A stretch of DNA of 32,405 nucleotides. Origin: Jimgerdemannia flammicorona (taxonomy: Eukaryota). How positions within the stretch are numbered: position 1 is the stretch's first letter; each line of letters opens with the position of its first letter. Positions 4,820 to 29,503 of the stretch are shown here, one piece after another. Both the position numbers and the translations under genes were made by a program. Where the stretch lies: positions 1 to 32,405 of the forward strand of contig RBNJ01000350.1 of assembly GCA_003990765.1 (NCBI GenBank), in the 5' to 3' direction. Under the pieces are notes generated by a model that was given only the letters and a program-made list of their open reading frames with translations, searched no databases and had not been told where the DNA came from.

Positions 4820-5230
4820 TTAAAGGCCAAGATGGAACTTAGCGACGAATTTTGTCATGCCACGACCGCCCAATTCACGTTCTATTTGAGCCCAGTGACT
4901 GGAATCAAAGAACTCGTTGAGATCGGCGATGTGGGCTTGGAAGGTGTCGCGGAAGGGATAGCGGTGTCTAAGCAGGGTGGACGAATGGGTAGGGACAAAT
5001 CGTGTAGGGGAAAACTGCTGATTTGGTGTGATTGAATTAGTCCAATATCAGCAAAAATAAAATAAAATAAAAAATAAAAATCGAGAGCGTAAAAATACCT
5101 CATTTTGCAAAGTTGGCGTCTCCCCGGTGTTCGATAGCATTTCTTCGGGTGTCCGACTCGAAGGCTCGCCATCGTCACAGGCCCCTGGCTCGGGGGAGAC
5201 GAGCGTGGCGACTTTGTTATTGGGTGGCAT
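4820..5230 (-). CDS. Microprotein family copy A, 109 aa, 2 exons (5230-5099, 5017-4820)
   Basis: A phase-0 GT..AG intron (5098-5018, ctaat branch site, CAGCAG tandem acceptor) joins MPPNNK...TLQNE to QFSPTRF...DLNEFFDSSHWAQIERELGGRGMTKFVAKFHLGL*. The C-terminus aligns without gaps to copies B and C. Confidence 0.65.
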
Positions 5231-6456
5231 GTTTGTTCTCTAGCAACTGTGGGTTTAAACATGGTGTTAACCATTGGGGGGGCGTGAGGCGTATATTTGG
5301 AAGGTAACGTGGTTCTGTCAAGCTGTCAAGCATGACGAATGGAATCGACATGTCAATTTTGGCAAGCGGTCTGGCACTGAACCGGAGACTAACCTTGGAG
5401 GTTTTTGAAGTTTTGGTTTGAAGGATGTGCAAGGCTTGCAATCTAATAAGATGAAAGATACCCGTAACTAAGCCTTCCTGCTTCTCTAGCAATTGGTATC
5501 AAATCACCTTGAAACCGGCGCACAAGGTTGAGGGTTCCAAACTTGGCATTCTTGAGGCCAACGTGGAAATCTAACCCTTTCTGTCGCCTCCGCTGTTCCG
5601 CGACATTCGAATATGGCGATCGACAACACGCGGCATGTCATTCCTCACACTCTGAATATCCTCCTAACCACCCTCATTGTGCTCGCCTTCCCATAAATAA
5701 AAATAAAAATGATATAAAAGAACAACAATGTATAATTCTCGCATTGGATCCAGTCCGGAACCGTATGACAGGCGGTTGATTGGTTGGCGGATGATTTTTA
5801 AACCTTAAAATTTTAAATTGATCAGTCACATAATACGAACGCCCTCGCTTGTTTTTTTTTGGGGGGGGGGAGGGGTGACCCCTTGAAAGCACGCCAATGC
5901 ACAGTATACGCATTACCGTGGTTCACAAATACAATGACTCTTTCATGTTCTAAATTTTGAGATTGTGGCATAGGTGTTTTAAACTGCTAACTACATGCTC
6001 TTGCCTATAGGTTGCTTTCATCAACACCGCGCGACGTAATCCACCAAAACACCGTGAAAACCACACAGATCTGCTAGTAGACAACTCCGGGATGAAACTA
6101 GGTTCTTCTACTACTTGAATTCTACGAATAAACCCGCCTACGGTGTTATGTGACTCGAGTAGGAAATATTGCGAATCCATTCAATAGTCGCATCTACTGT
6201 AGGGTTTATGGCGGTTACACGACGAACACATCGTGTGGTCATCAGCCAAGGTGCGTGTGAGGCCGACGCGGTGGAGATGTCAGGACGAAAAATATTCCAA
6301 ACGAACGCCAGGTAATTACAATATGTATATACCCCCGACGATCCCTAAACGACGGCTCGTTCTCAATTTTCACAGTGACGGCGAAGTGTCATGGCTGACT
6401 TGCGTGAAAAATCGTCACACATGTCCCCTAATAAACCGACGATGGAACGCACCTGA

Positions 6457-6924
6457 CTACGTCCCATTCGATGAGGCATGGAGTGGGGAGGAAAGAGACC
6501 CACTGTTTCTAGCATCACATCTTGCAACTGCTGCGAGCGAGCCTTGGTTTTCCCTCTGGTTACTCTCCTTTTGACCTCGCTTGCGAAGAACTGCACCCTC
6601 GTCGTCAGAATTTTCTGCGGTAGCAACGAGAACGGAATACCGGAGGACTGATCTAGCCAATGGCGGGATCGGAGTAATCACCATGGGAGGCCTCGTTGTC
6701 GCCTTCATGCGGCTCGGCGCTGGCGGTTGCGCGTCGATGGTGTCGTCACGATCCGTGATGACAATGATGGTTATCGATTTCGATTGCGGCATCCGCACCT
6801 GGATCGTGATGTTCGTCCTGTTTGGCGAATCTGCATCCTCCACCGCGGCGGCCTCCTCGAGCGGCGAGATGGCTTAGCTCTGACGACGTGGAACTCTTTG
6901 GTATAGAATTCGGGATGGATTCAT
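6457..6924 (-). pseudogene. Possible disrupted ORF of unknown function
   Basis: ATG at 6924 gives MNPSRILYQRVPRRQS, then TAA (6876-6874), then the same frame continues AISPLEEAAAVEDADSP... to 6457. GC-rich, coding-like composition; no family recognised. Confidence 0.25.
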
Positions 6925-6936
6925 ACTTGTGGATCT

Positions 6937-6995
6937 TGACCTGAGGTGGGTGTGACCTGAGGTGGATGTGATCTGAGGTGGGTGTGACCCCTGAG
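6937..6995. repeat. 16-bp tandem minisatellite, ~3.5 copies (GACCTGAGGTGGGTGT)
   Basis: Units gacctgaggtgggtgt / gacctgaggtggatgt / gatctgaggtgggtgt / gacccctgag. Confidence 0.9.
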
Positions 6996-7758
6996 CGCGG
7001 CCGACTTTTTCAGCACGACGAGATGTTCTCTTGCAGACACGATAGGTAAGGCGGTGGTGGAGGAGGAGGAGGCGAGCAGGGTATTTGCGGAGCGGCGGGC
7101 GTTTGGCACATGGGGCTGCGGAGAAGCCGCAATATATGATATTCTTGGTACTGGAGAATATGAATTCGGTGGAATGCATGTGCCGAAAATGTGCCTTGCG
7201 AATGGCGACAATGGTAGGCATGGGTGGATGAGTGGGTAGGTGGGGGATGAAATAGCAGTGCCATCTGAACCGACGACAAAATATAATGTTATATGTGAGT
7301 TCACGTAAAATATCGCCTACCGTCCTCCGCCCTCCGTCCTCCCGACATTTATGTATATATCCTGGTATTGCTCCCTCACAGAAATCTTTTCTTGATGGCC
7401 CCCAATGCGGGTGACATGTTTCAAGACAAACACAACAATGAAAATCGCTGATCTGCCCACCTTGAAACGTCAAGCCTCCGAGTAAATAACACTGACGCGA
7501 CGGCGATGGCTAGCAGCAGGAATCTCGACAACAGCGAGAACGCAGGTGGAAATGATGTTGGAGGAAGGGTGCGGTGTGTGCCATTCTGTCGGGGTGATAA
7601 TTGTTAATCGCATGCGTCGACCAGGTCATTCTCCACAATACGCCTTCCCCGTCCACCACAGCGCGATGCCTCTCAGTGTCGGCAATGTCAGGGAGAATGC
7701 GTGGGCCAAGAGCAGGGGAAGGGTTGAGGGTTGCCAGGGACCAGTCGCAGTTACAGGG

Positions 7759-7983
7759 GTGACGTCACATTTCGCAAATGGATTAAGTGTCACGTAACAC
7801 GTGTCGAACCCTACTACGATCGGTTTGAATGGCTTGTTTAGCATGAATTGGTTCTCTGTCGAGTTATGGCTTGCTTGGCAATAATCCCTCGCCTCTCTGT
7901 GTGGCAGCAAATTGACTCCCGTATGCATCATGCATGACTCAGGCTACGTTCGATGAAAGCGGAAATACTACCCCCATTGACTC
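7759..7983. promoter_or_regulatory. Cluster of bZIP-type sites upstream of the GH28 gene
   Basis: Palindromic GTGACGTCAC (7759-7768), TGACTC (7913), TGACTCA (7935) and TGACTC (7978), 440-660 bp upstream of the ATG. Short motifs only. Confidence 0.3.
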
Positions 7984-8419
7984 CGATTGACATCCATTCA
8001 TGGCAAGACATATCGTGCTCCTTTATAGGCTTTCCGTTGCCAGAATTAATTTTCCGTTCTTTACCCGATTGGATGCACTTTTTTCACAACTATTCTCGTA
8101 CGCTTTTGTTGGCTCTTGGCTAGTAAATGATCACAAAGTGTATTTCATTATGTATATTGCTCCATATGTACAAACGCATCCACATATTCGCGTCTAAATG
8201 CGCATATTTAGGTAAAACGACCGTCGCACCATGTAAGTTTACGCTGCGCAATGCCGTCGTGCGATATTCGCATTGTAACCCTGACATCTATAGTGATTTT
8301 TCACTGTACGTGGAGACAGTTGTATGTCCGCCCTCAAACTTACCTGCCGGCAAATGTGCATAAAATGCCGCATCACGATTCACAGACACCCGACTCATCC
8401 TCGTCAGACACACCAAAGC

Positions 8420-9857
8420 ATGGCTCCAATTACCCGCCTTCTCTCCCTGGCAACCGTCTTCCTCGTCGGCAGCACTTTTGCAACCACCGTTTGCACTGTC
8501 CCACACAAGCCCGGTGGCGACGACTACAACGCCATCGCCTTGGCGTTCGCCAGTTGCAGCCAAAACGCGCAGGTGGTCTTCCAGTCCGGTGTGGTCTACA
8601 ACCTGAACCAGCCGCTCAACGTGACGGGTTTGAACAACGTGCAAATTAAGCTCGACGGCAGCATCAGCCTGCCGAACAACATACTGTACAAAAACAAGAC
8701 GACGGCGTTCATCGCCATCTCCGGCACTAACGTCGACATCATCGCTCCCGCCGACAGCTCACAGAACGGCAGAATTATTGGCAATGGCCAGGTGTGGTGG
8801 GACAAGGGGATCAGCAGCGGTCGCTACGCGACGCTGCAAGTCTCAGTCAAGAGAGGCTCTATCCAGAACCTGAAGATCGAGCAGTCGCCGTTCTATAACC
8901 TCGTCCTGGATCACTCCAGCCACCTTAGAATTGATGGTATTAAATTCACCTCCGTCTCCGCCAACTCGGTTCGTAAACCGTTTCAAATTCAAAATTCACT
9001 TCTGCATGCCGACTGGGTCAACTCAACTTGGTCTTTCATTTTACAGAACTTGCCCCGGAACACGGACGGGATCGACTTCTTCTATAGCAGCTTCATCAAC
9101 GTCAGCAACGCGCAGATCACCAACGGCGACGACTGCATCTCCGTGAAGAGTAACAATACAGACCTGTACTTCAATCATGTAAAATGTGTTGGAAGCCATG
9201 GCATCAGTATCGGTTAGTCAAGTTTCCCAAGTAATGACTTATCCCAATTTGCGAGTAATTGGATTTTCAGACTAACACGAGTGTCAAAATTTTTAATGCC
9301 ACTCCGGTTCTGGTTTATCAGGAAGTCTCGGCATAACCCCCGGCGTTTACGAGTACTCGCTCCGTATCCGAGCTGACGACACGAGCTGCACAAACTGTAG
9401 CAATGGTGCTAGGATTAAAACTTGGCCTGGTAAGATACGGACACTTTCCGCGTATTATTCATATGAAGCAGCACTAACTAACAAATACCATCGAGCAACA
9501 GGTGGTGTGGGTCTCGTGCAAGATATCACCTTCAACGGCTTTGCCGTCACCGGTGTTGACCGCCCAATCTATATCGACCAATACTATTGCGACACCGGGG
9601 TCGGCTGTCGCACGGGCAAGTCGCTGGTGCAGATCCAGCGAGTCAACTTCAATAACTTCACCGGCACCTCGTCTGGCGCCAAGAGCAACAATCCCGTCAA
9701 TATTATGTGCAGCGCCGATGCCCCTTGCCAGGAGGTCTATCTGTCCAACATTAGTATCACGTCCCCGATGGCGAATGTGTCCAACATTTGCACAAACGTG
9801 GTTGACAACAAGCCCATCGGGATCACCTGCGTCCCTGGGAAGATCTCCGTCTCTTAG
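8420..9857 (+). CDS. Secreted GH28 polygalacturonase (exo-PG-like), 392 aa, 4 exons (8420-8968, 9047-9212, 9322-9429, 9502-9857)
   Basis: Signal peptide MAPITRLLSLATVFLVGSTFA. All four GH28 motifs are present: NTDG, GDDC, GSHGISIGSLG (split by intron 2) and RIKTW. All introns are GT-AG; spliced length is 1179 nt, in frame. Confidence 0.93.
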
Positions 9858-11770
9858 TAGAGATAAGAATGACAATATCTGCTGGATTCCAATACTCTGA
9901 TGTATGACAGAATTTGTTAAAAATTAGTCCACAAAATATATTATGTCGTTTTTATAATCGTGTCCGACGCCGGCGCCGCAAAATAAATATGATCGTAGTG
10001 AAACACGACTACATATTTGGTTTAAAAAGGTTATGTCTGTGTGGATGTGAAACATTAACTTGAAACGTGTAATTTGAACGCGTCGACTTCCAAACTAGAC
10101 TGCCGCTATATGCACGTTCTGGCCAGTAATGGAAGGACCACTCCAGCGCACGTATAGAGGGCCACACCATAAGGAGCGACACAAGCCAACACGTGTTTTT
10201 CCCCGGGCTTAGGCGGGCATAAGGGAAAGAGGGTCGAGAAGATACGCAAAAGGCAGCGTTTGGCTTTATGTACCTTGACCCAGATTGTTAAGCAATAATG
10301 TAATTACAACGACCTCCCCCCTCCCCCCTCCCCCCACTCAGAAACGAAGTGACTGTGACTCCGCATTTGGCCACGTGGATTTCCTGCTTTACACGCCATG
10401 CTGACCGTGACCGCACGGCACAATCCACCCCCCAAAAACTCCCCTACCCTCCTTTAGCCCTGGGTCCGAATCATCCGACACCCCTGGCGGCATTTCCGTT
10501 GGACATTCGAGAGTGAAAAGCAGTAACTTAAAAATCGGGTTATTTGCTGCGGGCCCCGTGCTTCCCTCTCCCCCACCGAATGTTAACAGCTCAATGGTTT
10601 GCTACGACAGTAATAATTAAAAGCGTTGGGTGGTCGATAATGGATGTCCGCGGAGATATTTACGACGTTTAGTCGCATGGCGATTTAAACCGAACAAGGT
10701 TCTTATTGTTTGCTTGATTGGGTGATGCATAAATGTTCATCCCTTTTTTAGCCACACGACGTCAAAGTTCCACCGGCGACATTACCGACATGCGATACTC
10801 CCCACTGGAACAGTTTGCAATCCGAAAACTCTGCCAACTCATCCAATGCATGGAGTTGCTCGAATTGGGCGACACGGTCGGTTGCAATAGTGTTATTGTT
10901 GGCGAGGCCGCAGAGTTGCTCCTTTCCTACTTCTTTTCATTCTTTGCATATTTTCCTCACACTCGCTTGCATTCTGAAAATGTACGGCATCAATCAGTCA
11001 CGCCAACTCCGAGGGCATCACACCACACGTCTCATGTGATGACACATGCACCAGACCCCGTGCGAATATATTTTAGTCCATGCTTCTGTTTACTGACTTA
11101 TGCTACTGTTTACTAACTTTTAGCACAGTGACATGGAAGGAAATCTGTGACACGGAAGGAATAGTCATACTAAGCCACTAAGGTAAGATTTTAAAAGTGG
11201 CCGCACGGCTTACGCAATTTATTTGTCAGGTCGATCAGGGCGCGTCCCAGAATAACTTTCTCCATTGACCGAGTTGGGCACGCTAACGAAATAGCGAAAC
11301 CTGGAAAATAACAATTCCGCTTCTGTACACGTATATATTTTCCGTCGGACATGACATGGACACTTCGATATTTGTGCGGGTGCTCGAATGACTCGGCGTA
11401 AACGCCACCATTTGTAATGCCTCTGTCATTCGCAGGCCAGTAATGGAGGTTTACATGCACAATTTCGTTCCTGATTTCCTTCTAGTAATTCTTTGTATCT
11501 TTGTATCCATCAGATGATGACCATAACGAAGCTGAGCCGCCTGCGCAGCATTTCCACAGCTTCTATTTGTCTGTGTCGCGCTTGAAATGGTGGCTGTTGA
11601 CACTCGGTTTTCCGAATGACCCTGGCGGCACGCGAGTGGCTGTGCGGGTCGGGAGAGAGGCGAAAGCGCTGGATTTGATTCCCCTACCGAACCTCATAAA
11701 TGGGGCATCAACCCCCTCCTCGCCTCGCAATCCCTTCTCATCAAATTCCATCCCACCACCGCCCTTATTT

Positions 11771-13742
11771 ATGACTGAAATATTCAACAAGCTCGAGCAC
11801 ACAATCAGGGATCGTTTCCGGGGCGCCAAGGACTTCCTCACTGGCCACGCGCCCGAGACCAATGTTCCTTGGCACAACTGGGCGGGCAATCAAAGGTGTA
11901 CGCCGGCCAAAACGTTTCACCCGCGCACCGTCGACGACCTCAAGGGAATTGTGAAGATGGCCAAGGACGAGGGCCGGGGCATACGCTGCGTGGCCGAGGG
12001 CCATAGCTGGAGTAGCATCAGTAATACCAACGGGTACCTGGTGAACGTGACGGAGATGGACGATGTGGTTGTCCAGAGGAGCGACACCCATGGATGGACC
12101 GTCACCGCCGGTTCGGGTGAGCTTTCGGTGGATGTGTTTCGTTTTACAGGAACCCGGAGTTTGTGTTCATGTTTGCGAATCCGCCAAACCCATATGCTAT
12201 TGCTCCCTGCAGGTGCCACACTTAGTAAACTGGACGAAACGCTCAAGGCGCACAACCCGCCGCTCACACTTGTATCAGCGACGGTGCTGGATAACGGTTT
12301 GTATTCTTAATTTTGCTTGGTTCTGTTGCAGTGAATAAACCACCGTAAACCCGATGAAGTTCTGACATTTGGCATTCATGTTTAATAGTAAGGGTAGGCG
12401 GTATCGTTGCGACCGGCTCCCACGGAGCCACGACCTGGTCGCGTACCATCCCGGAGCAGGTCGTCTCCATGATAATTGTTACGGCGGACGGCGAGGAGCA
12501 CGAGTTCTCGGACGAGATCGACCTCGTTGAGATGAGCGCCGCCCGCGTCAACCTAGGTAAGGCCGTGTGGGGTGAGACAGACCTTATTAATTATTATTAT
12601 TATTATTACAGATACCTGTTTTCCCACCGGATTTTTTTTTTTTTTTTTTGCGCTGCAGGCCTCCTTGGCATCATCTACACGGTCACCTTCCGTGTCCAAC
12701 CGATGTACCACCTTCGTATGATCGACTTCTTCCCGCCGATCACGTCGTGGCTGAACGCTGCGACGCTCAAGGAGATAGTGAACAGATCCGAGGCTGTGGA
12801 GGTGTTCTACTGGCCATTCAATAGCGGCGACCTAACTGCGACGCATGACAAGCTGTGGGTGAAGCAGTGGGTGCGAACGGAGGACCCTGTAACACAGTCG
12901 CAGGACTTCCTGCGGGCCGAGCGGATCGGCCAACAACTTTCGGTGTCATTCAGCGACAAGCTATACGAGTTCCTTCCTACTCATCCCTCCGCCACGCCCC
13001 ATCTTTGTCGTCTGCTCTTCGAGGCCGGGTTGAAGTCCGCCGACAATGTGTTGCTCGCCCCTGATGCAATCCATTACCAGCATGGCATAGATGGGATTCC
13101 GTGCTGGGACTTGGAATTCGCTTTTAAGGTGAACGAGGATTTTTCTAACGTGGTGGAAGGAGTGAGCATGATCATTGACAAGGTACGGGTCTTTACTATT
13201 CTGTTTCTAATAGAAAGCCCTTCTTACCTGCTCCTGCTATGGGCAAATTTAACTTACCTATCTGATCTTTACACAAATCACACATTCATGACTGCTCCTC
13301 CACACAGGTCTACCAGAACGCCAAGAAGAACAAGTTCCCTTTCAATCTCACGGCCGAATTTCGCCTTTGCAAGTCTTCACAGGCTTTCTTGTCGTCTGCG
13401 TACGACACGGACCCGGATGCGATCTACTGCTTCCTGGAGGTTCTGGCAATAAAGGGCACCGGCGGGTTCGACACGTTCTCTGCGGAGCTCGGCGACGCCT
13501 GGATGAAGCAGTTCGGCGCGCGGCCGCACTGGGCCAAGATGTGGGAGCACGTGCCGGGCGTGCACGCACGACTTCGCACGCAGCCAGGCAATGCGGATAG
13601 GTTCGCCAAGTTTGACACTGTGAGGAGGAAGTACGACCCGAAAGGGATGTTCTTTGGGAATCCGTCGCTGAAGGCCGTTCTTCTCGGGGAGAAGTTGCCC
13701 TCCGGGTTCAACTCCAAAGCGGTTGCCGGGTTTAAACGATGA
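11771..13742 (+). CDS. FAD-linked aldonolactone oxidase (D-arabinono-1,4-lactone oxidase / L-gulonolactone oxidase family), 518 aa, 5 exons (11771-12116, 12213-12296, 12389-12556, 12659-13182, 13308-13742)
   Basis: Motifs WHNWAG, EGHSWS (His for covalent FAD), VGGIVATGSHG, NLGLLGII, EFR, RPHWAK and YDPKGMF. All introns are GT-AG; spliced length is 1557 nt, in frame. Confidence 0.92.
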
Positions 13743-15187
13743 AAAGCTTCGTTTTTGTATTTGCTTGCTGTAATTGTTCGATGTATTCGATGTGTTTAAT
13801 TTTGTATAATCTCACTTTTTTATTTTCGTCACATCAAGGTGTATGGATATATTATCCTATCCACTTTATAATTTTTTCATGGCGCATTGCTTTATTGTGC
13901 ATTCGGTAACGTGGTCTTCAAAGACAACACGTTGCTAGAAATAAATAGTCTGAGCGAACGATTTTAATAAAGGCCGTAATTATTTAGAAAATAGAGGGAG
14001 ATGACCGCGAGGACGTCACCAATGCTCTTGGGACCACTACTAATTACCGCGCTCCCCAAGATTGTTCAATGCGAGTTCTCCAACGAGCGGGCGCATTCGA
14101 GTATCCAGTGCAGGACCGAGTGGGACCGCGCAACTTGCGACGTTTGTTGGACGTATGACAATTACGAAGAGCACTTAACAGTTGGCCAGAAGCATGACCT
14201 CGAACGGGGACAAGACGCGGTTCGGGATGTCGCGACTGCAGTTTTACGTGGCAAGTGAGATCCGCGCATGAGGATTTCTATCGCCATCGTCGCCCGCCAT
14301 GTATGTAATTGGCATATCTTTCGCATAGCAGTAGGTTGGTAATTCAGCGCATATAGAAACTTGTCAAGGGGGATGTTCTTCCTTTCTATCTTTTTTTTTT
14401 GTTTTTTTGTTTTTTTTTTAATACAATCCCGAGGCGCTTGCAAGGTTTGTTGAGCGAAACCGGTGTTTCGGTTTCCGGAAAGATTGTAGTTGAGGCGGTC
14501 GGTAGGAGCCGAGTCACAAACCACACAGCCGCAAATAGTTGACGTAGTGCTAAAAACTTGGAGAACGGCGCGCTGCCCAATCGTCGAAGACGAAAGGGAT
14601 TTCGGGGGAATTTCGTGACGGTCAATGGTGACCCGCAACATCCGCAACTTGAACTTGACATGGGTGAGGGTTTCGGTGGGAACAGCCCGATGGTTGCATG
14701 CCGCATGTGTATATACATTTGAATGGATAAATAATAATTCATGGCACCAAAATTCAGCCGCTTCACATACAGTGATATGCAAAGATATCCGATTGCTCAA
14801 ACGTTCATTAAAAAAAAAAAAAGTATTGTATACAGAGAATAAAAATGTACTGAAAGGCAGGAACCTAGCGTCATTAAGACGAAACCCAATCTCGATATTA
14901 TGTCGTAACATACCGTTGTCGATAGATCGATTTCGGCAGTTTATTACACCCCCCCAAAAAAAGAGTACAGTGCAAACAATCAAACATTTTTTTGCCCAAT
15001 ATTAACTACCTCTACCTCATCCACAACAAGGACAGTATGATGAGTGATGCAATAAAATCCGCCAATTGTCCAGCGCAACTACTAGGTAGAAAATATATTC
15101 GATACACAAAAAAAAAAAAAAATAAAAAATCTCCCTCATATCGTTCAGTACATTTTTTTTCGAGATACAAGGTGAAATCAACGCCAT

Positions 15188-15708
15188 CTACGTCAGTTTT
15201 TTTCTAAACCACCGTTTTGCACATGAATCTAGAGGAAAGGGGTAAAGCGGAAAGTGAGAAGTACGTCGCCGTTATATTTGGCGACTAATGCACCCAAACA
15301 TTCTCTCCACCAGTAATTGCTTCTAATAAACGGCCGACGCTCTTAACCGACCGCAACACCGCGCTCATAATATAAAATGAAACCCCCGTAGAACAACCTT
15401 CAACCCATACAACAGCAGGCGATGTCTACATTTAAAACCTACCAGTTCTCTTCTCCGGATCACATTGGCATTTGAGCTGCAACTCGGGCTGGAGAGGGCA
15501 GTGCGTGAATGGGGATTTACGGTATCCCATATCGTCAAAGTAATGGATCTCAGAGGGGCTTAATAGCATCGTCGCAGCAATGGAGTGGACAGCGGCGTCG
15601 CTCCATCTGTTGATAGATGTTGGGAATGAACATGCCAGATTTGTGAGTCATGACGACATAATGCGTTGCCATTTCTGAGGCAATCGATATATATATATCA
15701 ATCATCAA

Positions 15709-15742
<34 letters not shown>

Positions 15743-17106
15743 ATCACGCATCACCACGCGCTTTCGAAACACGAAACTTACCTTTCGTAGAAGAACCCGC
15801 CCGTCCGATCCAGATACTCAAAGAAACGAAGATACGCTGAAGACCTGAAGAAATTCAAGCTGCCGATCTCAAGATTCGACCCGAAATAACACGTGTTATA
15901 CGTGCGACCATCATCGTCTGAAATAAAATCAAGTCGATTCTTCTTGGGAATGAGAGAGGAGTATTGACGCATGAAGGATTTCACCGTTTTCCAGAGCGTC
16001 GACATAGTTTGCTCCGAATCGTTGAGCGCAAGAGTCCAACCTAGGAAGGAGGCAAGAAGACGTTGCTTAGGTGGAGAAGTGGTAATTCCTCATGGTAACG
16101 TCGACTACGCTGACTCACTCCACACTTTTTTTTCTTTTTAGACTGTTACTTACTAAACTTGATGTCATTTTCTTCCATAAACACGAACGGATCATAATCA
16201 ATATTGCACAAGAATTCGACAGAGGGGTCAATGCGCCAATAATAATCGTAGCCATTGAGTAGCGGATGGCGAAAGAAGAACCCTGCATTATAGCTATGGA
16301 AAATATAGTCGAAGAAGTCAGTCGGAGAGACAACATGGATAAACGCTTAACAGAAATCAGCCAGGGTGCCGACTACATGTTCCTTTTTCGTATCTCCGTA
16401 AACTCCACACGCGCTCTTCACGCTTCCACAGTAACACTCACCGGGCCGTTAGCTGATATGACAGGCTCCCGCCATGCACAACCCGATTTCTGTCGGCTTG
16501 CTCTTCGTCTACCCAGGGCGGGTAACTAAAATCGTGGTCGGGGAAATAGCCTGGGGTAGATGATCGATAGTTTCTGTTAGAGTCAGTGTACATTTGTTTC
16601 TATGCGACGAAGGTGAGCCTCAGTCTGTCCATCCGGCAGCGCTCGTTCTGGTTCAGATTCCAAGCAGACACGTCGCGGTTTCAAGTAAAAAACATTTAGG
16701 ACGCACCGTAATGTGTGGTAGCCTCCGTCAAGTCGGTTGTGGCTTTGCGGAACTTTGTTGAGAATCCCTCCTCGTCGAGAAACAGGTAGGGGTACTTGTA
16801 TACAGAGTTAAACTTGGTCTCGACCTGTTTCATGGTGTGCCGGACGGCATCAAACTCAGAGTCGCCGCCAATGATCACGATTATGGCGTTGGCCTGTTTG
16901 GACAAGTTGTGCCATGGTGCCAGAGGTTCGAACGGGTCATCATGGGCGACGTTGGGGTGCTTCCGGGGCTTCGTAAGGGGGGCAGGTACGTGATCTAGCG
17001 CTCCTTGACCGGCAAAGTCCGAGGTGTAGAAAAAGTAGACGAGCAGCACGAGGACGAGCAAGGTGATGGTAAGGGGTCGGACCTTGACGGTGATAGCGTG
17101 GGCCAT
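15188..17106 (-). CDS. GT15 (KRE2/MNT1/KTR family) alpha-1,2-mannosyltransferase homologue, 370 aa, 6 exons (17106-16707, 16550-16442, 16293-16154, 16040-15782, 15606-15443, 15228-15188)
   Basis: Type II membrane anchor. Motifs KFNSVYKYPYLFL, GFFFRHPLL..YDYYWRIDP, TLWKTV, GGFFYERWSDAAVHSIAA, HCP..KCQCDP and DSCAKRW. Spliced length is 1113 nt, in frame; the last exon is the least certain. Confidence 0.9.
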
Positions 17107-17569
17107 TGTTGTAGAAATGACAGGGGGGACGTCAACGATTTTCCAAGACGGCGCTCACCCTCCAAAGATGGTCTTCGCGCCACGGTCCTTCGATTGGCGG
17201 ACGGAATTCGCATATATATAATTAGCGCATAGCGGACTTTTCTTTTTTGAGTGCTCACGATAATACCGAAGACAGAAGACGAGGAATTCCCGTGTCACAC
17301 CATTGTCCCATTGTCGAATAAAAAATCAACGTCCGCCGGTCAAGTGCAAAAGTTACTTCTTTTAATTGCAAAAGTCAACCGTCTACCCCCAAAGTAAAAC
17401 ATTGTCAATAAGAACCCATTTCTCTACCATTTCTCTACCAGTCCCCTAACACCTTGAACACAGGCGGGATTATGGCAGGAAATTTATTCCTCGCGTAAAC
17501 AAAAGATAACACAGCTTGTTCATGTACATATTTGATTTCAAATACTCGCGGCATACCATTGCGGGTAGG

Positions 17570-18782: not shown

Positions 18783-20250
18783 TCAGGCCAAAGGACGCCT
18801 TCCCAGCACGGCATGCCAATTAGTGTACGATCTCGAATCCCGGAGCTTGTTGACAAGGTCATCGACGTACTCGTCATATTCATCCAAGGTTTTGTTGAGC
18901 GCAGGGGCGAAGACGGTCTTGGTCGCTTGGCCGATCGCCTTGGCGTCGTTGAACCAGATCTCGCTCAATTGTCCGTTCCAACCTAGCTCATATCGGGAAT
19001 TGAAGGTCAGACGAACTATCTGGGCGCTAAATATTGAAAGTAACAGAACCGATAGGGGAATGAATATTCACTTACCGACGGCGATACTCCGCTTCTCGTG
19101 CGTAACAAGTTGGAAACCAGCGGAGGGAACCAAAGCAGCCAAATGAGTCGCCACGTAAGGATCCTGGCCGCCCATTGATAAGATGGAGCACACTACAACA
19201 GCAGATATTTCGGAAGAACAAAGCGTTACGGATCGATCTTGATATAGCCGGTACCCCCCCACCAACCACACCCACGTCGTAAGCACCATACTCGTACGTT
19301 TTTCCATATGCGCGTAACAAGCCGGATCTGCCGTCACATAAGCAACCTCGCTCTCTACTAGCTGGATGAACCCTCCGGGTTTGGTCACGCGAAACAATTC
19401 CGCCAGCACCGCGGGCCACTCGCCCGCGCGCAAACCAAAGATCAGCGATCGCATGTGAACGAAATCAAAGCTCTCATCTTCGAAAGGGAGGCCCTCAAGG
19501 ACGTTACACTTGTGGAAGCTGATGTTAGGAGGGTTCAACGTCTCCGGGAAAATGGGCGACATATCGATCGCATGACATTCCGTATCAGGATGATCTGCCG
19601 CTATGTCCTAGAGGTGAAGGGCGTTAGGAAAGATAACGAAAGCCTCTGTGTGTGTTTTGGCCAAAAGCACACCAAGAGACAAGAGAGATTTACTCACTAT
19701 AATCCATGTTCCCGGACCACAGCTTTAATTTGAAAGGTAACGAGAAGAAAGAACGACAGTGAGCATTCATGGCCTTGGTAAACCAACTCTAATATACGAT
19801 TTCGTGACCTTACCCAACATCAAGAATGGTTGCGTCCTTCCTCGTAAAAACTTGCTCGGCCGCCGAAAGGACCGATCTGTGGATAACAGCAAAACTCGAG
19901 CGTGAATCCCTCATTCAATCACCACAGCTAAACCATACCACAAGAACAATACTTCAAACATACCCTTCAAATATTGACTTCACCAGATAATGCTGCATTA
20001 TCAGGCGGTCTATCTCTTGATTGTCACGCGGCAAGAAATACGAGCTTCCCTTCACTGCATGATACTTGCGCCCCTCCATCCACCGAAAGTCCGGGACATC
20101 GTCGGCAGCAGTGGTGGGGGCGTTCGACGGTCTCACTTCCATGCTGCTGGTCTTGCTTCGCGTTGATGGAGAGAACCGAGGCCATGAGCGTGGTTGGAGT
20201 TTAATTCGACCGCCGGAGCGCCGTTTGATTTTTGACGCCTCAATCCCCAT
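18783..20250 (-). CDS. Class I SAM-dependent methyltransferase (LaeA-like/Methyltransf_23-25 type), 333 aa, 6 exons (20250-19964, 19876-19814, 19722-19698, 19607-19298, 19192-19076, 18982-18783)
   Basis: Motifs GRKYH..YFLPRDNQEIDRL..QHY, motif I ILDVGCGPGTW (split over a 25-nt exon), LPFEDESFDFVHMR and ELFRVTKPGGFIQLVE. Spliced length is 1002 nt, in frame. Confidence 0.92.
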
Positions 20251-20387
20251 TTTGTGTGGGATGCATGCTCTGTGCAATTCAGAATGCACTCCACGAAGCT
20301 GGGCGAAACACAAAACGCTGCCTTTATGTTTGTCAAAGAACATTAAGGTTCCATTGTTCGGAACCCAAGGTCTGGGTGGTCATCTGG

Positions 20388-20388
<1 letters not shown>

Positions 20389-20443
<55 letters not shown>
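20389..20443. repeat. Poly-T tract (55 nt) upstream of the methyltransferase
   Basis: Read directly from the sequence. Confidence 0.95.
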
Positions 20444-20444
<1 letters not shown>

Positions 20445-22454
20445 GTTGCATGGGGTCGTTAACATGCCCCTGGATTGGAGCTTTGCCAATTTTGCGGTTT
20501 GTGCTGCCGACGTTACTCCGGAATGGGTAGATACTGCTCTTCCCGATCTTGAATTTTCCAGATATGGCCATCCTTAGGGCCAATCATTTCCGAACTGATA
20601 GCGGGTAGCATCTTAGAAAGTTTGTGTGAACGTGGCTTGATGGAGAGTTTGGGAACAATACCAATCTACATTATCTTGCAAACCACGGATTTTGGGAAAA
20701 AAAAAAAAAAAAAACCATTAAGAAACCATTGAACCCAACCGTTCAAAGCTTTCCACCAAATGGTGGAAAACACGTCAATGAATTAGTCACAAAACCTTTG
20801 CTGGTTGTGTGACAAACCTTACAAGAGATTTGCTTCCGCTATAATGTTGGTAAGAATAAATCTCACGCCATGCACCTGCATCTCCTCGGAGATAAAAAAA
20901 GATCGTCATCCGGCTTCATGGCAGGGGATCCGCTTTACAGCAACAAGATTTAATTTCCCTTTAAAACGCAATATTTGTTGTGCCAATCATCGATCTACGT
21001 ACGAAAAGGTTTTGCCAACACAAAGGGCCGGTGCGTATGACGACGAATGTGAATTACGTAATATGCGGAACCTGTTCAAGCTTGGTTCTGTTACATGCTT
21101 TGAGCCGTCCACAGTTCTGGGGTAAACCACCCTTCGTGCATGATAAATCGTGCTTGTCGCTACAATACAACTCATACCTGCTTGCTGGGGAATATTATTA
21201 TATGACCACTTCTTAAAAATGTTTTGCCAAGCTTGGTTTATCGGTTGCTTTATCTCTCTCACTCACAAGTATATCGTCGGCAAATGAGCTGCGCTCTACA
21301 AATTCTACATACGCTTTTTTTTTTTGGGGGGGGGAGAGGGGTTTGTTTGTTTGCCGTGTTTAGGCACCAAACCAAACCAAAATAAACAAACATAGCACAC
21401 GATGACATATTTTCATTTCTTACAGAATTAAAAACCTTAAGCTATGACGGATGACATAATCACAGGGCCCTGCTTTGCATAAAAGCAAACGTCATCTAGG
21501 GGATGAATATAAATTCCGCTTGAATAGTTGTAAGCGAAGCATCATTCACCCTCTGAGAATTGCAAAGTTTGGGTTCTAAAGCCAGGGGCCACTGTGGTCA
21601 GCTATTTTTACCGGATGCTATTTATTTGTCATTTACTTTATGCATGCATCGGATCCCATATCCTGCAGAAATGACGGCGCATGCATTCAAGAGCATTTGG
21701 CATACACCGGTTGATCCAAATCCGCGTCGAACATTCTCGACCTGAACACATCCATTCCAACATACCCAGCTGGGAGTACATATAATTTGCGTAGATTAAG
21801 TTTATGTGCGAGTTTTGCGTGCGCGGAGGGCACGTCCGCTTACCACACGCCATGGTTTTCTAGCTTGGCATCTGTTCCTGCATTCACACTCTCGGCGAAT
21901 CCTTGGAGTTAAAGTATGTCATGGGGTGTTTCGATTCATTGACATCTGAAGGTTTGTGTGCAAAAGACTTTTCTGGAACGAATATGGCCCCTCAGCCGGA
22001 CAAATCAACATTTGGGTTAGGTTTAGTGTTTACCTGTCCTTTGAACCGCATATGCTATGTATAATAATGTTCTCTAAATTAATGTGTAATTGTTACAAAT
22101 ATCCTGCCTTAAGCTCACAATCAAAGAGGTGTGTCAACGCGCAAACCATAGGCCACCCTGCCGCTACTAGTGATGTGTTTGTGTATATCCTCGATATTTT
22201 CCTCATCTTATTTTTGACACTCGCCCATTCTCATGACGACATTGACTTTTCTTCCTTTTCGAACTTCTAGAAAAGGTGATCGACATCCCAGAATATCTCT
22301 TTCATGCTCCGTCTCACTCACATCTTTGACAAAAATGATTTTTTTTTTAGTTGTCAACATCGTTTTCGCTGACCGAGGATTAACTCACAAAAATGAGGTC
22401 ACGCAAATTCCGGTTCAGCTGAAAACGCCAATAGAAACTCGATTTTTTTTGGAG

Positions 22455-23060
22455 TAGGTTCTGAGAAATTCTGGCGAGTTTCCAGGATATTACTAAAAGC
22501 ACACCAGGAGTCAGAACAGACCAGAAGTATCCAGAAGTTAAAAGCTAGAAGTAGTCAGAAGTCAGAAGCCAGAAGACAAAAGTAATTTCTAGTATATCAT
22601 ATCCTAGGCATATAAGGAATTATTTGATATATTTCTGACATGAATGTTTGATATAATTTATTAAATACAGATTTCTAAACAATACTATTATTAAGAATAT
22701 AAAAATCCAATAAACACGGGAAAACATCACTTGTTCAGATGGTGGTATGATATATAATGTCATCTGGATCAATCACATCAGATATCAAGGACATCACTAT
22801 CTTACTGTTGGTCAGATCTGATACTATGACCATTCTTCAACAATTAAGCAGTACAAAACAAATACAACCCAAAACCCTGCCGATTACAGATAAGCACAGA
22901 GTGGTGGTGGTAATTAAGTATGAATGATGACCAAGTTCAGAAGGGTGACCAACCACTGTGAGGTACTCACGAAGTGATTCCAGCAGTTGACAGTAGAAGG
23001 GTTTCATATTGGTGGGGTGGTGGGCATCTCATCAGTACAGAAGAGGGACAAGTCGACGTC
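22455..23060. mobile_element. CpG-depleted DNA-transposon end relic with subterminal (Y)CAGAAG repeats
   Basis: Begins taggttctg. Clustered ccagaag/tcagaag/ctagaag units at 22510-22576 can be read as deaminated CCGGAAG. Very few CpG over ~600 bp. Confidence 0.45.
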
Positions 23061-23409
23061 ATGAAGCTGCTTATGGCCGAGTATGAGACAGCCAAAATGT
23101 CGCGTTTATCAAATGAATTTTGTCTTTAAAAGTTTCGTGGTACCATATATTATTAATACCGCTTGTTTCAATACAAACTCACTCCCCTCGTTGCATTTTA
23201 ATTACATCCACGTTACATCATGTTTAACTTTCCAGCCCGCTCTTCCAATATTTCCGGAATGTGAACCATTCACGGGTTAATCCGACATTTCTTCCTCCGA
23301 TGCTATCTTCGCGCGACGTGTCACATGGTCGCGTGATTGAAAATATGTGCATTACATCCACCCTTTGTGTTGAGATGGCACGTGATAGATTTCCCTGCAT
23401 TTCGGGCTC

Positions 23410-23610
23410 CGAACCGGACGAGTAAATGTGGACTGGACGAGCGAACATGGACTAGGCAGTGGACTGGGGAGCGATTGTGAGCTGGATTAACGAAAGTGGG
23501 CTGGACGGTGGACATAGATTTAGACGAGCGAACATGGACTGGACGAATGAGAACGGGGACTGCCGAACTGGAAGATGGACTGCCGAGCAAACGTAGTCTC
23601 GTGGACTGTT
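23410..23610. repeat. Degenerate TGGACT-based repeat tract
   Basis: Many tggact/ggact units and an exact 18-mer GACGAGCGAACATGGACT at 23436-23453 and 23523-23540. Confidence 0.7.
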
Positions 23611-24290
23611 CAAACCGGTGAAGCGCCTCTACCCGCTGAGCAGATCGCTTCCAAGGTGGCACTCTTCCCGTTCAATACCCCTCCAATTCCCGAGCCAAGA
23701 AGCTGTGGAACTTGCTGCATAACCACAAGAAAAACGGCACCACCTCCCACATTTTCGGCGATTTAATCTCGTTCGGAGTACTTAACCAATGATCCGACCG
23801 TAAGCTCTTTCCAGGGAATGTTCTTCTTCCAAAGGACGGCTAAATCCAACGCGATCAAGAGTGTACGTAAGGATTGTGAAATACTATGTTACCTGAAACC
23901 CATATCGTGGAGACTTAGCCAAGCGGCTGACGAGCTTTATATCAAAGTCGTGTATCAGTTCGCGCTTGAATCGGTGTGTTAGTTTTAATCACTCGGGAAC
24001 ATTTTCCATATATTATGACGTTTGAAAGCGACAGATAGACGAAGGACCAAAGCCGCAGGTCACCGTATTCCCACCGCAATTGTTCATTTGGATCACATGA
24101 CAAGTATACCTGGTTGTTGCCGTTATAATATCACAAGGCATAAAATGTACGACTAGGTACTCAATGGGTACCAGTTGAAATTTTGTGACGGTTATTGTCG
24201 GCAAGGCAGCAACTAATATATTATTAGTCTATAGAGTATATAACGCCGAAACGAAACGCGAATATAATTGTAAGCTTGAATGCTCAAAAT

Positions 24291-25032
24291 AGTTTCAACC
24301 CCATGATGTGAGAATAATAGCACTTCACTGCACTGCGGTCAGTGCCGAAAGTAACCGGGCTATTTCGAAAAGACATTTTCGGAATTTGAACCTTACATGT
24401 TTTATTTTTTCAATAAATACACTTGAAAGAGTCAATCTCCGTTTACTTGAATCAGCAATCTCTGAAGAATTATCGGCATATCTCTGACCTTCAAAATACA
24501 ATCAAATGGCCGATAAACGTACAGTTATTGTCTCCTTTCTCATAGAATTTGCTCAAATTTTTAAATGCGTCATGAATAGGCGATCCCAACACGCCATCTC
24601 TCTTTCTCCTAGCTCTTGCTGCTTTCCTTCTACAAACACCTTTACTTATGCCTTGTACTATCACGGTATTTGTATGCGCCTCTCCAGGATTACTATTTGT
24701 CACCTCAATAGTCCACCAAAATTCCAGATCTGGCGCCCTCCGAACACTCGCTCGACGTGGGGACGAGCCTAGCTGCCACATCAGTCCCGCCGGATGCTGG
24801 TTCGAATGCAGAGCTTTATTTGCAACCCACGCATGGTGATGCCACCACGGCATTGCCGCAGATAGAAGAATCTCTGCTGGACTACTTATTTTCGACAGAT
24901 TTTGCCCCTCTTGAAGAACAGCTCGACGAAAATGGAATGATAGAATTTGTCAGAGTGGTGTGTCGCCCTCAAAGCCTTTTAAACGGCTCACTTCTGGTGG
25001 CTGAATATCCCTTGGAGTCCGCTGAAATATTG
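24291..25032 (+). repeat. Left arm of a diverged ~750-bp inverted duplication
   Basis: Collinear with the reverse complement of 29192-29973. Shared blocks include catgatRtgagaa, tttacttgaa, ttccttctacaaa, attccaRatctggcgcc, cgagcctagctgc, ccgccggatgctg and gtccgctgRaatat. Confidence 0.85.
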
Positions 25033-25077
25033 GGTATGCCTTGTCAGGGATATTGCTCCCGGGCATCCCGTGGTTGA
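24674..25077 (+). pseudogene. Microprotein family copy B (disrupted)
   Basis: The ATG at 24674 is homologous to the copy C start but is followed by a 2-nt indel and an in-frame TAG at 24709-24711. Downstream IPDLAP..SLAA..VPPDA..SLLDYLFSTDFAPLEEQLDENGMIEFV is retained. Confidence 0.65.
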
Positions 25078-25900
25078 ATCCATTTATCTAAAGAGCATAA
25101 ATGCAAGGTCATGACATCGTCCTTTTTAATACGTTTGCCGCAATTCGCTTTGAGAAGGTTTGTTCCATCAAATATGTGTGTTGATTTCGGAAGGAAACCC
25201 CAAGTATACGGCGTAAATGTCAAACCGTTTAAATTCCTTTCCATCGAGCTCAATGTCCAATTCACACAGATTGCTGTAAACCTTTGTCCCGGGGACGGAG
25301 AGCCATGCTGTCTGCCTTGTCTGTTTAGAAGCCTGCGGTGAAGGCTCTACAACCTGGTAATCTGAAACCATCACTTCAGAACCGCTTTCGATCGATCCTA
25401 CTGGAGACTGACATTTTGGCGCGCTTTTTCGCGACATGCGAAGGGATTCCCTTAGGGAATATGGTGTTCTTAAAGACATGGTGGCAAATCGTCATGTAGT
25501 GTGGAGAGGTCGCCGTAAATGTGTCGACTGCCTCCGCAAGGTTGCGGGCCGGCGAGCTTGAGGTCAAAGTGGCTCATAATTTTGAGCAGCAAGGCGCGCA
25601 ACGCACCATCTCCCAGTCGGACCGTGCCGTTGCACCCCGTCACTATATCGCAAAACAGCACGGCGTTTTGAAGCTGACAATGCGTTTTCGTTGCGTCCTC
25701 AGACAAAACACAGCAACAGGTCGTGCTCAGACGTGGCAAGGGTTGCTGCCTCGGTGAATAGTAGCTCGAGGGCCTCCTTGGAGAGGTCGGCCAACTCGCC
25801 AATGGTGAGTTTGTGAGTGCGGAAGGTTTAGGAGTGCATCGTAGAAGGCTTTGTTGGCTTCGCGCCAGGGGACGACAGCGACGGCTTTATTGAGAAGCAC
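25044..25900 (-). pseudogene. Frameshifted gene relic with a BTB-associated BACK-like segment
   Basis: 25812-25699 reads KLTIGELADLSKEALELLFTEAATLATSEHDLLLCFV*, resembling the BACK pattern LSxxxLxxLL...SExxL...W. It is followed in other frames by ALRALLLKIMSHFDLKL and further coding-like fragments down to 25044. Confidence 0.4.
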
Positions 25901-26061
25901 CAAAATCAGCGAGGTCGTTCACGTGCTAACACCATCTCCATGAGCTTGGGGAGGAGGCAAAAGCTTGTTGTACGGTATGTCCTTACCGCAAGGAAATTTC
26001 GACTATATATTCGATGACAATAAATCCGAGAATGATGTTGTGTACCGCGGAGGTGATATCG

Positions 26062-26542
26062 TTGAAGACAATACAAAGAGAGGAACCTTCTCAGGTTTTA
26101 CATACAGCATTGCCTTGAAGATGGGGTATATTTAAATGTCTGTCATATAAATCAATTCCAATAAAAAGTGTTACAAACCTTACAATGGACTAAGTATGGC
26201 AAATTAATTAGATAGACTGAGATAATAGAGTTTGAAACATACTCTACTCCTGGTATTTTTTATTTTTATTTTTATAACTATTTAAATATATATTTGATAA
26301 AATAAGTACAATTAATATAATAATATATATATAATTTATAGTTTAGCTCTATTATTTACTTTATAGCTTAGTTTTACCTATATATCTCTAAATAATAAGT
26401 TTAAAATAGATATTTTTTATGCTCTAGCTATATAATTTAAGACTAATTATAATATTATATTACAAATCTTTCTTACTTAATTTTTTTTTTATCTTTTATT
26501 ATATAATATAAGTAGTTTATTATATAATTTCTCTAAATTACT

Positions 26543-26580
<38 letters not shown>

Positions 26581-27266
26581 AAATTATATATAAGGTTTTA
26601 TTTAATTTGAAGAGTATTATTAACTTAAAGTAATAGATTTTAATTATTATTATTATTAATAGAATTTACTCTTAGATCTTTTAAAAGCTAGTTTTAACTT
26701 CTTTAGATATTATTGCTTATTAATTTAAGTTTAGCTTTTTGTTTTTTTCTTTTTAATAGTAGTTTACTATAATATTTATAATATAAAAGAAAGAGAGAAT
26801 TTAATAATTCTAGTATAAAATATTAATTTTTTTAAAAATATAAATTTAGTTTATATTAATTTATAAAGATATATTATATTATATCTAAAATAGTTAAGAT
26901 CTTATATAGAAAGTTACAATAGTTGATTTAATACTCATTTAGTTAAATAGTTGAGCTGATAATAGTTAATTCTAGTACTTTAATTAAATCAAATTGAAAA
27001 ATCCTCAATTTATTTAAGAGTAGTAGTTAATTCTTCTATCAGCTATTATTATATACATATAGATATAATCTAATTTTATCTCAATTTATCTAAATTCAGT
27101 AATGAGTCTCTAATAAAGTTTCTGCCATGATGAGTGTTATGTACTATATCTCTATTAATAAGATTTAGTACTGTCAACCTCAATCTTTAATTAGTTTACA
27201 ATGCTTGATCTGTTGGATTTTTAAAATACCATATGAATCAGGCATCATAAAAAATGAGCAACCCTA
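26062..27266. mobile_element. Extremely AT-rich, CpG-free transposon relic ending in a hAT-like terminus
   Basis: No CpG found by eye from 26062 to 27306, and the core is TpA-rich. The right end caacccta (27259-27266) reads TAGGGTTG on the minus strand. Confidence 0.6.
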
Positions 27267-28619
27267 CTAGTCTATATAAAGAACAAATCTTGAAGCCAGT
27301 ACAGCACGGCATGTGCCTAGCTTGACATCGCTAGCACACTTCGTGGGAGGTTGGGTCCTTCCAGGCGGAGGCGGTGTTGAGATTAATGCCACTGTCGCAT
27401 TGGGCGACTAAAGGGAAGATTGGTGCTGTGAAAGTGTACATCGATGCTACTTACGAGGTGTTGGACGTCCTTTCCAGTGAATTTGCCAAACCATCGCCGG
27501 AAGGAGGTAAGGGCACTGGCTAATTTGTCATTATGTTTGCCATCGTTTTCGTCTCAGAAGATTCTACACACGTACTTGGCAAAATCCAACAGCCGTACAC
27601 TCGATATCATGTGTTTTTGCGAACCGAACAAAGCCAATATCTAACAGTTATGGAGATTGTTCCTATAAACCAAGTTGCAGAACTTTTGTACTGCAACGCT
27701 CCTTGATATGTATATACTCTCAATTAACGTGTCCTTTGAATTGTTGTCATACCGAACTCGGACACAAACTTAATCCGACTGACCAAAGTAATTCAGAAAA
27801 TGTAGATATATGCAATCGAAGCGTAGTCCCATAAAAATAAAGTGACGTGTGCTAATGTGTTCTTTTAATTTTTGCACACAGATTCATACAAAACTCTATT
27901 TTGTGTTGTTGACTTCTGTGCAATGTACCCATTGCTTCCACACCATATTTGCGACCTCGTCAGGTTAGCGGCCTACTCCGATCGCACCGTTCTCATGAAG
28001 ACTTATTGTGTTTGTGTCGTTTGTCCCACGATTTGGGGGGGGGTGGGGGGGATCGACACCATATGGCTTCATGTCTCGTTGCACAAGCACACAGGATCCA
28101 CGTGCAACTCTCCCACCTTAAAAAAAAATAAAATGAGTGAATATTTACTATTTCCAGCAAGCAAACTGCAACCGTTATACAGTTATTAATAATTACGGTT
28201 TTTTTCCTTGGCGTATTATTTTACCCCCCCCCCTCCGCTAGCGTATATTCCGAAAGCCCCCATTGTCGTTTACTCATAATTCTAAGTTGTGAATATCCAT
28301 TTTGTGTGATCGTAATTGATATTTCGCAGTTAAAAAAAAAAAAAAAAGTTCCCATAATCAAAAATCTTGCCGAATCCTTCGAGCTAACGTATGTGTCATG
28401 CTGGAAACTAGGTGCTAACGAAGGGCTCTACCATATGTTTCGATTTGTTAGCATCTGAAGGTTATTGCACAAATTATCTTTTCAGGACTCTCTCAGCCGG
28501 ATAAACAACTACAGGCTCGTCATGTTATGCCATTGAAAATGTGTATCAAGCATACCAAATATACCCTAAGATGGTTTACGTATTTCTGCGTTACGTCCAC
28601 TAGGATAAATAACATATTA

Positions 28620-29112
28620 AATGGGATGTCGGCGGCACGGGTGATACGGGCTTTGTGATGACAACAATGATGTCAAGATGGCCGTGGCTGAACGGAGATC
28701 TGATTAATTTGGAAAGATGGCTCGTGGAAGCATGTTTTAAAAGTTAGTAGGGAGCTCTTGAACGTGAGCAAAAATGAAATGATGATTATTTTTCACGTCC
28801 ACATACTACTCTTTGGCCAAGATATTTACCCGTATTTGTCTGCAGATGATTCCTAAGATGACCGTTCGTGGGAGGCAACACAAGACAACTCGCGATACCT
28901 AAATCGGTAAGAAAAGGGCCCAAGAAGCACGCCAAATTCACACGTTGACAACTTGCATGATTTACGTTGCTTTCATTTCTATCATATGTTTGCCATTTAT
29001 ATGGATGTATGTCTACGCATAGTTGAACTATAGCAATAACAATCACAATGAGGATAAAAGTAGAAGACAGAAATAAGAGCTGAAAGTTCATACTAGTGAT
29101 TGTCATAGTCAA
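28620..29112 (-). pseudogene. Possible decayed type II membrane protein, sulfotransferase-like
   Basis: N-terminal hydrophobic stretch FQLLFLSSTFILIVIVIAIV. Across a frameshift, RVVLCCLPRT + HLRNHLQTNTG resembles the LxSxPRSGNxxLRxLLxxxTG PAPS-binding loop. Weak. Confidence 0.2.
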
Positions 29113-29191
29113 TTAATAAAATTTGATATCATATGAAAAAGGTCAACGTATAACTCGGCTTAGTGTTAGAACACATATTTTTTTTGATTCA

Positions 29192-29503
29192 TCACATATT
29201 CCAGCGGACATTTATCCACCAGTAGTAAACATTTTGAGGGGGGCGTGCTTCTTTGGCGAATTCCCTCATTCCCCTTCCGTTAAGTTCTGCTTCAAGGGCA
29301 GCAAAGTCTGCCGTAAACAGATACTCAAACAAATCCTTTTGCGGCGATGTTGCCATCACTTCCTGATGTTCTGCATTTGGGTCAGCATCCGGCGGAACTA
29401 ATTCAGCAGCTAGGCTCGACGCCACGCCGAGCCTGCGTTCGTTTGGCGCCAGATTTGGAATTGTGGATGGTCGAGGTGATAACCTGAAATCATGGAGGGG
29501 CAT
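29192..29503 (-). CDS. Microprotein family copy C, 103 aa, single exon
   Basis: Open frame MPLHDFRLSPRPSTIPNLAP...DLFEYLFTADFAALEAELNGRGMREFAKEARPPQNVYYWWINVRWNM*. Homologous to copy B in DNA and to copy A in the C-terminal motif. The start codon is inferred. Confidence 0.6.
   Translation of the reverse strand: MPLHDFRLSPRPSTIPNLAPNERRLGVASSLAAELVPPDADPNAEHQEVMATSPQKDLFEYLFTADFAALEAELNGRGMREFAKEARPPQNVYYWWINVRWNM

Follow-up and report, generated by a model that had tools for sequence, protein, structure and literature searches.

A small conserved module occurs at three places on contig RBNJ01000350.1 of Jimgerdemannia flammicorona (NCBI GenBank assembly GCA_003990765.1), of which the whole stretch from position 1 to 32,405 (32,405 nucleotides; the window) was analysed. 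Sequence comparison places the three copies, designated A, B and C, in a genuine family of small acidic proteins from fungi, which is undescribed and restricted in its taxonomic range; public databases list its members solely as hypothetical proteins without a described function or family. The explanation that best accounts for the data as a whole combines this restricted family with a local duplication that gave rise to copies B and C, a C-terminal mini-domain, and a role of that mini-domain in docking; we put its overall probability at roughly 55%.

The most conserved part of the module is a 27-residue motif, found at 4844..4924 on the minus strand in copy A, at 24871..24951 on the plus strand in copy B, and at 29255..29335 on the minus strand in copy C. 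Each position is given both by alignment with the other two copies and by a profile built solely from relatives outside the window. The three stretches align without gaps and lie where the initial annotation had placed them. In Smith-Waterman comparisons, the scores of 60 for A versus C and 164 for B versus C were reached by none of 2000 shuffles, while the score of 42 for A versus B was reached by 32 of 2000. Taken alone, the weak A versus B score would allow the likeness of A to B and C to be a chance match drawn out of six reading frames. However, when the six-frame translation of the window (1316 pieces, 53,150 residues) was searched with a hidden Markov model (HMM) of B and C only, copy A was the sole other match (E 3.8e-4, 16.5 bits), the next having an E-value of 2.8. 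An HMM of the five outside proteins described below recovered A, B and C only, with E-values of 1.5e-9, 1.4e-9 and 6.4e-12 and bit scores of 35.1, 35.2 and 42.8, respectively (next match, E 5.9). In 60 block-shuffled windows, the outside-only profile scored at most 8.2 bits and the B+C profile at most 12.2 bits, so that none of the 60 reached the score of copy A with either, and the chance explanation is already refuted. The A-to-B/C match is thus significant and the three copies are homologous, as the initial annotation had proposed for A despite its divergence; within the window, no similarity of A to B or C was found at the DNA level, though the protein motif is kept.

Relatives outside the window were sought in a library of 1,835,955,588 representative proteins, compiled broadly from public genomes and metagenomes. 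A HMMER profile of the three window motifs gave nine matches at E ≤ 1e-3, five of which (P0007, P0008, P0010, P0011 and P0013) are small acidic proteins with the same C-terminal module and, across the set, lengths of 78, 130, 150, 166 and 172 amino acids (aa). Three of these five clusters carry source names, all of them hypothetical proteins from Endogonales: BC938DRAFT_482413 and BC938DRAFT_474518 of J. flammicorona, and BC937DRAFT_92625 of Endogone sp. FLAS-F59071. A fourth outside member carries only the source tag ‘lgn’. The family had initially been called lineage-specific. It is indeed restricted, with its three named relatives all coming from Endogonales, but it is not private to this genome; given the five outside clusters, ‘lineage-restricted’ is the better term. 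The best outside match of copy A is the Endogone protein P0013 (BLASTP, 17 of 37 residues identical, 46%, E 2e-10), with which it shares a second, N-terminal BLASTP match at E 0.003, and copy C is closest to P0007 (21 of 37 identical, 57%, E 8e-10). In the family as compared here, copy A belongs to an older branch.

The other four library matches were not accepted as members. P0005, P0009 and P0012 are long repetitive proteins whose matches were repeat-driven, and none of them matches the outside-only profile. P0006 (221 aa) was set aside: it matches only as three weak tandem units scoring 8–12 bits each and 34.9 bits in total. Its units are about 60–70 residues long, each with a weak copy of the motif, and it may be either a repeat-expanded relative or a translated satellite. 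Single-sequence word-indexed searches with copy C and with exon 2 of copy A gave no match, and a word-indexed profile search returned only four proteins, all of which were already in the query alignment.

Across the family, the module follows roughly the consensus L-x-x-[YF]-[FLW]-x-[ST]-x-x-[FW]-[AT]-x-[LIM]-E-x-E-L-x-G-R-G-M-x-E-F-x-x-E-[VI]-R. Upstream of it, weak but collinear islands can be recognised in the N-terminal part, namely [ST]-[IV]-P-x-L and V-P-[PT], as well as a Pro that is conserved some 20 residues ahead of the module; because these islands are collinear, homology appears to extend beyond the motif to the whole small frame. The hypothetical proteins of J. flammicorona and Endogone have the same C-terminal module in the same place as A, B and C, and resemble A and C in being small (78–166 aa) and acidic with a variable N-terminal part. 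They differ in their low identity outside the module and in the tails that follow it, the distance from module end to C-terminus being 8–54 residues. The isoelectric point (pI) is 4.0–5.7 across all eight members: 5.7 for A (109 aa), 5.1 for C (103 aa), and 4.0–4.5 for the outside members (78–172 aa). By eye, no obvious signal peptide, as would mark secreted small effector proteins, is present at the N-termini. A hydrophobic N-terminal stretch is likewise absent by eye from A, the 103-aa form of C, and four of the five outside members; short stretches of this kind are seen in P0010 and in a 130-aa form of C. A search-level survey of full-text literature by these locus tags and genomes found no description of the family.

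Copy A (4820–5230, minus strand) is modelled as a gene of two exons and one 81-nucleotide (nt) intron, encoding 109 aa in total. Exon 1 (5099..5230, minus strand) begins with an ATG at 5230 and comprises 44 codons of a Pro/Ser-rich sequence starting with MP, while exon 2 (4820..5017, minus strand) comprises 65 codons and a stop and carries the conserved C-terminal domain. The putative intron between them (5018..5098, minus strand) is T-rich and of the GT..AG type, with a GTATTT donor, a CAG acceptor, and a branch-like CTAAT 16–20 nt 5′ of the acceptor; if read through, it contains a TGA in frame. The gene model agrees with the initial annotation on both the spliced length and the intron at 5098–5018. 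Copy A had also been described as visible only after splicing, which does not hold, because the motif lies wholly within exon 2 and can be seen without splicing; it is the ATG-initiated frame alone that needs the splice. The acceptor at 5015–5020 (minus strand) is a tandem CAGCAG, and two splice forms that differ by one codon are therefore possible. With a codon-usage model trained on 1302 codons of Pfam-supported genes of the window, for which 104 other open frames served as the null (mean −0.15, standard deviation 0.18 bits per codon), the exons of copy A score +0.14 (exon 1) and +0.18, and the intron −1.05 bits per codon. The other supported introns of the window, in a glycoside hydrolase and an oxidase gene, are about 90–125 nt long and have signals similar to those of the copy A intron. 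The in-phase GT..AG intron supports copy A as a coding gene, and so does its codon usage, with positive scores for both exons and a strongly negative one for the intron.

Copies B and C are convergent. Copy C, at 29192..29503 on the minus strand, is open over 103 aa and starts with MP at an ATG at 29503; an alternative in-frame ATG at 29584 would give the 130-aa form. A model of copy C with an upstream ATG and an intron was ruled out, an acceptor in phase being absent. Copy B, at 24712..25077 on the plus strand, runs for 121 codons from stop to stop, and its sole in-frame ATG lies inside the motif. Pairwise alignment shows that both copies, with their upstream regions, are part of duplicated segments with approximate limits at 24300..25020 (plus strand) for B and at 29195..29965 (minus strand) for C, the latter inverted relative to the former. 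The inverted duplication spans about 720 bp, including about 350–450 bp 5′ of the frames. DNA identity amounts to 71% over the coding part and 63–71% over the flanks, and drops to 34–40% outside the segment. From this alignment, B and C were born by local inverted duplication, with the upstream region carried along. A TATA-like AATAAATACA at 24412..24421 (plus strand) in B is kept in its counterpart at 29842–29852 (minus strand) in C, and, with nearby blocks, is common to both copies about 230–340 bp 5′ of the candidate ATGs. We infer that it may be a promoter element of the pair. Between the two copies lies an island of 18% G+C at 26001–27000, and no frame of at least 75 aa in the surrounding region (20.5–32.4 kb) has a Pfam match.

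Copy B differs from copy C by three lesions: a 2-nt indel directly 3′ of the C-type ATG, a TAG at 24709–24711, and a 10-nt insertion directly after the module, which shifts the frame of the tail. Copy B is probably a decaying copy that has lost its ATG-initiated frame, because an in-frame ATG before the motif is absent. An alternative model at 24648..24711 (plus strand) starts with an ATG at 24648, reads six codons beginning with MP, and then enters a putative 46-nt GT..AG intron (24666–24711) whose removal would restore the frame. The case for such a rescue is weak, because 46 nt is far shorter than the 81–125-nt introns of the window and because copy C has no in-phase acceptor at this place. 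An intact ATG-initiated frame is thus present in A (with its intron) and in C, and is missing from B unless the doubtful 46-nt intron is used, so that the initial description of two open copies and one disrupted copy stands. Antisense to copy B, there is an ATG-initiated frame of 120 codons (24491–24853, minus strand); it is not conserved, since the corresponding strand of copy C has an open stretch of just 46 codons (29347–29487, plus strand).

Selection on B and C was estimated from the ratio of nonsynonymous to synonymous change (dN/dS; Nei-Gojobori method) over 78 codons. The ratio is below 1, at 0.44 with a bootstrap interval of 0.21–0.88, and, by part, the 27 motif codons give 0.18 and the remaining codons 0.63. 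The motif value is noisy because the synonymous sites are saturated (proportion of synonymous differences, 0.66). Copy B scores +0.04 bits per codon in the codon-usage model. The dN/dS estimates weakly suggest recent constraint on B and C.

The structure of the module was predicted with AlphaFold2 from the alignment of eight sequences. In full-length copy C, the mean predicted local distance difference test score (pLDDT) is 62.9, with block values of 49–58 over residues 1–50 and of 85–87 for three helices at residues 54–61, 65–73 and 78–86; a fourth helix in the tail (93–102) has a block pLDDT of only 52–55. When a 46-residue domain was modelled alone, the same three helices were obtained with a mean pLDDT of 77.1. 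The protein is accordingly predicted to have a disordered, fast-evolving N-terminal part that makes up two thirds of its length, followed by about 35 residues that form three short helices. The motif had initially been taken for a short amphipathic interaction module; the prediction gives three short helices that would form a mini-domain, not one amphipathic helix. By our reading of the pattern, conserved hydrophobic positions recur at i, i+3/4 and i+7 on each predicted helix, a conserved Ser/Thr precedes predicted helix 2, and G-R-G-M is the last turn.

Villin headpiece, UBA and peripheral-subunit-binding domains are very small free-standing three-helix domains. The module as predicted is like them in having about 35 residues, three short helices, and an aromatic/aliphatic core at the end of a flexible chain. 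It differs in having no Pfam match and no Foldseek match in the PDB, and membership in any of these families is unsupported. The module matches no described domain, as the initial annotation had supposed: Pfam, NCBIfam, PDB sequences, Foldseek and the ESM Atlas all gave no significant match. The best Pfam-A hit for exon 2 of A, B and C (E up to 10) was DUF4327 at E 0.17, with 12.5 bits against a cut-off of 27, and the five outside members (E up to 1) gave nothing below E 0.07. The NCBIfam scan returned no family. In the ESM Atlas, P0010 had no usable match, and the best result for the domain (0.88, 119 of 256 shared features) pointed to bacterial clusters and was at noise level.

A search of PDB sequences at E up to 10 gave GH13 sucrose isomerases as the top matches (4gin_A and 1zja_A), at a best E-value of 0.24. 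The local pattern near residues 54–105 is shared over about 50 positions, including the D-F, L..EL and RGM positions, and the motif could in principle be a relic of, or a convergence on, the GH13 helix-strand region that precedes D-x-x-x-N-H. The matches are not significant (E 0.24–0.5), no Pfam alpha-amylase match accompanies them, and the fold context differs, with the rest of the enzyme absent. At 78–172 aa, the members also fall far short of the length of the catalytic barrel and contain no further part of GH13, and the predicted structure is all-helical, so that a GH13 origin is close to refuted. A part of the motif, hydrophobic-A-x-L-x-x-E-L-x-x-R-G-hydrophobic, may resemble the first half of the SAP motif, in which case the module would be a nucleic-acid-binding helix-loop-helix of a divergent, SAP-like kind. 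There is very little to recommend this idea: no SAP row appeared in Pfam for the eight members (E up to 10 or up to 1), no SAP-bearing chain was found in the PDB sequence search, and Foldseek gave no match. Furthermore, the module is acidic rather than basic, and three helices are predicted, not two.

Under the preferred explanation, the conserved hydrophobic residues would pack into the core of a mini-domain that stands on its own, with the conserved Glu and Arg residues on its surface. The docking site of this mini-domain would be a conserved partner in the cell. The acidic arm, which is variable and predicted to be disordered, bears the short conserved islands and would carry short linear motifs; its task would be to recruit or to block another component. 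Protein docking is probably the function of the module, and proteins of the A, B and C type would act inside the cell as small adaptors or inhibitors. A different role is suggested by the acidity of all members (pI 4.0–5.7) and by the hydrophobic-x-x-hydrophobic-hydrophobic spacing of their bulky residues, a pattern that is associated with activation domains. The acidic, aromatic-rich module might then be a transcriptional activation or co-regulator contact surface with a nuclear role. We consider this improbable, as activation domains are rarely so conserved or predicted as a folded three-helix unit, and as Pfam scans of the family members turned up neither a DNA-binding domain nor a nuclear signal or a known partner.

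Several observations weigh against the explanation based on a host gene family with a docking mini-domain. The codon usage of copy C (−0.17 bits per codon) is no better than the null (−0.15). B and C are equally diverged in their coding part (71%) and in their flanks (63–71%), and the dN/dS intervals are wide; as the coding DNA is no more alike than the flanks, the case for constraint rests mainly on conservation across species. Copy B matches the outside consensus at 13 of 22 positions and copy C at 16, and with five C-only versus two B-only matches (p 0.45), faster evolution of B is not significant. On the structural side, the AlphaFold2 models were built from eight sequences only, with predicted template modelling scores of 0.30 (full protein) and 0.46 (domain alone), and Foldseek, which has weak power on 46-residue queries, gave no match at E ≤ 10 for either model among 350,542 PDB chains.

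The equal divergence of coding and flanking DNA would also be seen if the motif came from a mobile or repetitive element, either as one of its accessory frames or within its decaying relics, and the copies were not host genes with a cellular role. In keeping with such an origin, three copies occur within 25 kb in addition to at least two clusters in J. flammicorona, and B and C lie in the region without a recognised gene and adjoin the low-G+C island. Copy B is broken, and P0006 has three weak tandem units that resemble the motif. However, no transposase, reverse-transcriptase or other mobile-element domain was found by Pfam among 137 frames of at least 75 aa in the window, and a search for terminal inverted repeats around the B and C segments found none. 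Copy A keeps the protein motif without DNA similarity to B or C, the motif persists from genus to genus as the remainder of the protein diverges, and dN/dS is below 1. A mobile-element origin is therefore unlikely, although it retains some weight, and a family of host genes is preferred.

The gene content of the rest of the window looks fungal. Intron-bearing genes with Pfam matches lie on both strands. Those on the plus strand encode a GH28 glycoside hydrolase at 8297–9854 and a FAD-linked ALO-type oxidase at 11489–13739. On the minus strand, a GT15 mannosyltransferase at 15781–17154 is followed by a methyltransferase at 19071–19607, which probably extends to about 20379 in a frame that has no Pfam match of its own. 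Long open frames without a Pfam match are found at 997–1821 (plus strand), 6460–7509 (minus strand), 25171–25886 (minus strand) and 31425–32108 (plus strand), and the first of these has, by eye, the look of a multi-pass membrane protein. Intergenic poly-T runs of about 30–80 bases are located at 1957–2037, 15710–15741 and 20389–20443, the last directly 5′ of the methyltransferase gene. An Rfam scan and a tRNA scan of the window returned no matches.

A bolder reading, for which the odds are low, takes the module for a fold not seen before, which would stand free at about 35 residues. It would then define a fast-evolving family of acidic, mostly disordered proteins that is confined to plant-symbiotic fungi of the Endogonales type, undergoes local birth and loss, and modulates a conserved fungal or host protein, possibly in symbiosis. 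Were it true, the module would be among the smallest folding units known. If the module folds alone, it would offer a convenient new mini-domain for folding studies and a handle on its binding partner. At present, the finding amounts to a well-supported new protein family rather than to a new mechanism or a new kind of system. It gives a signature to hypothetical proteins of a few early-diverging, plant-associated fungal genomes, and it shows the local birth and decay of genes, in the form of an inverted duplicate of which one copy is probably broken.

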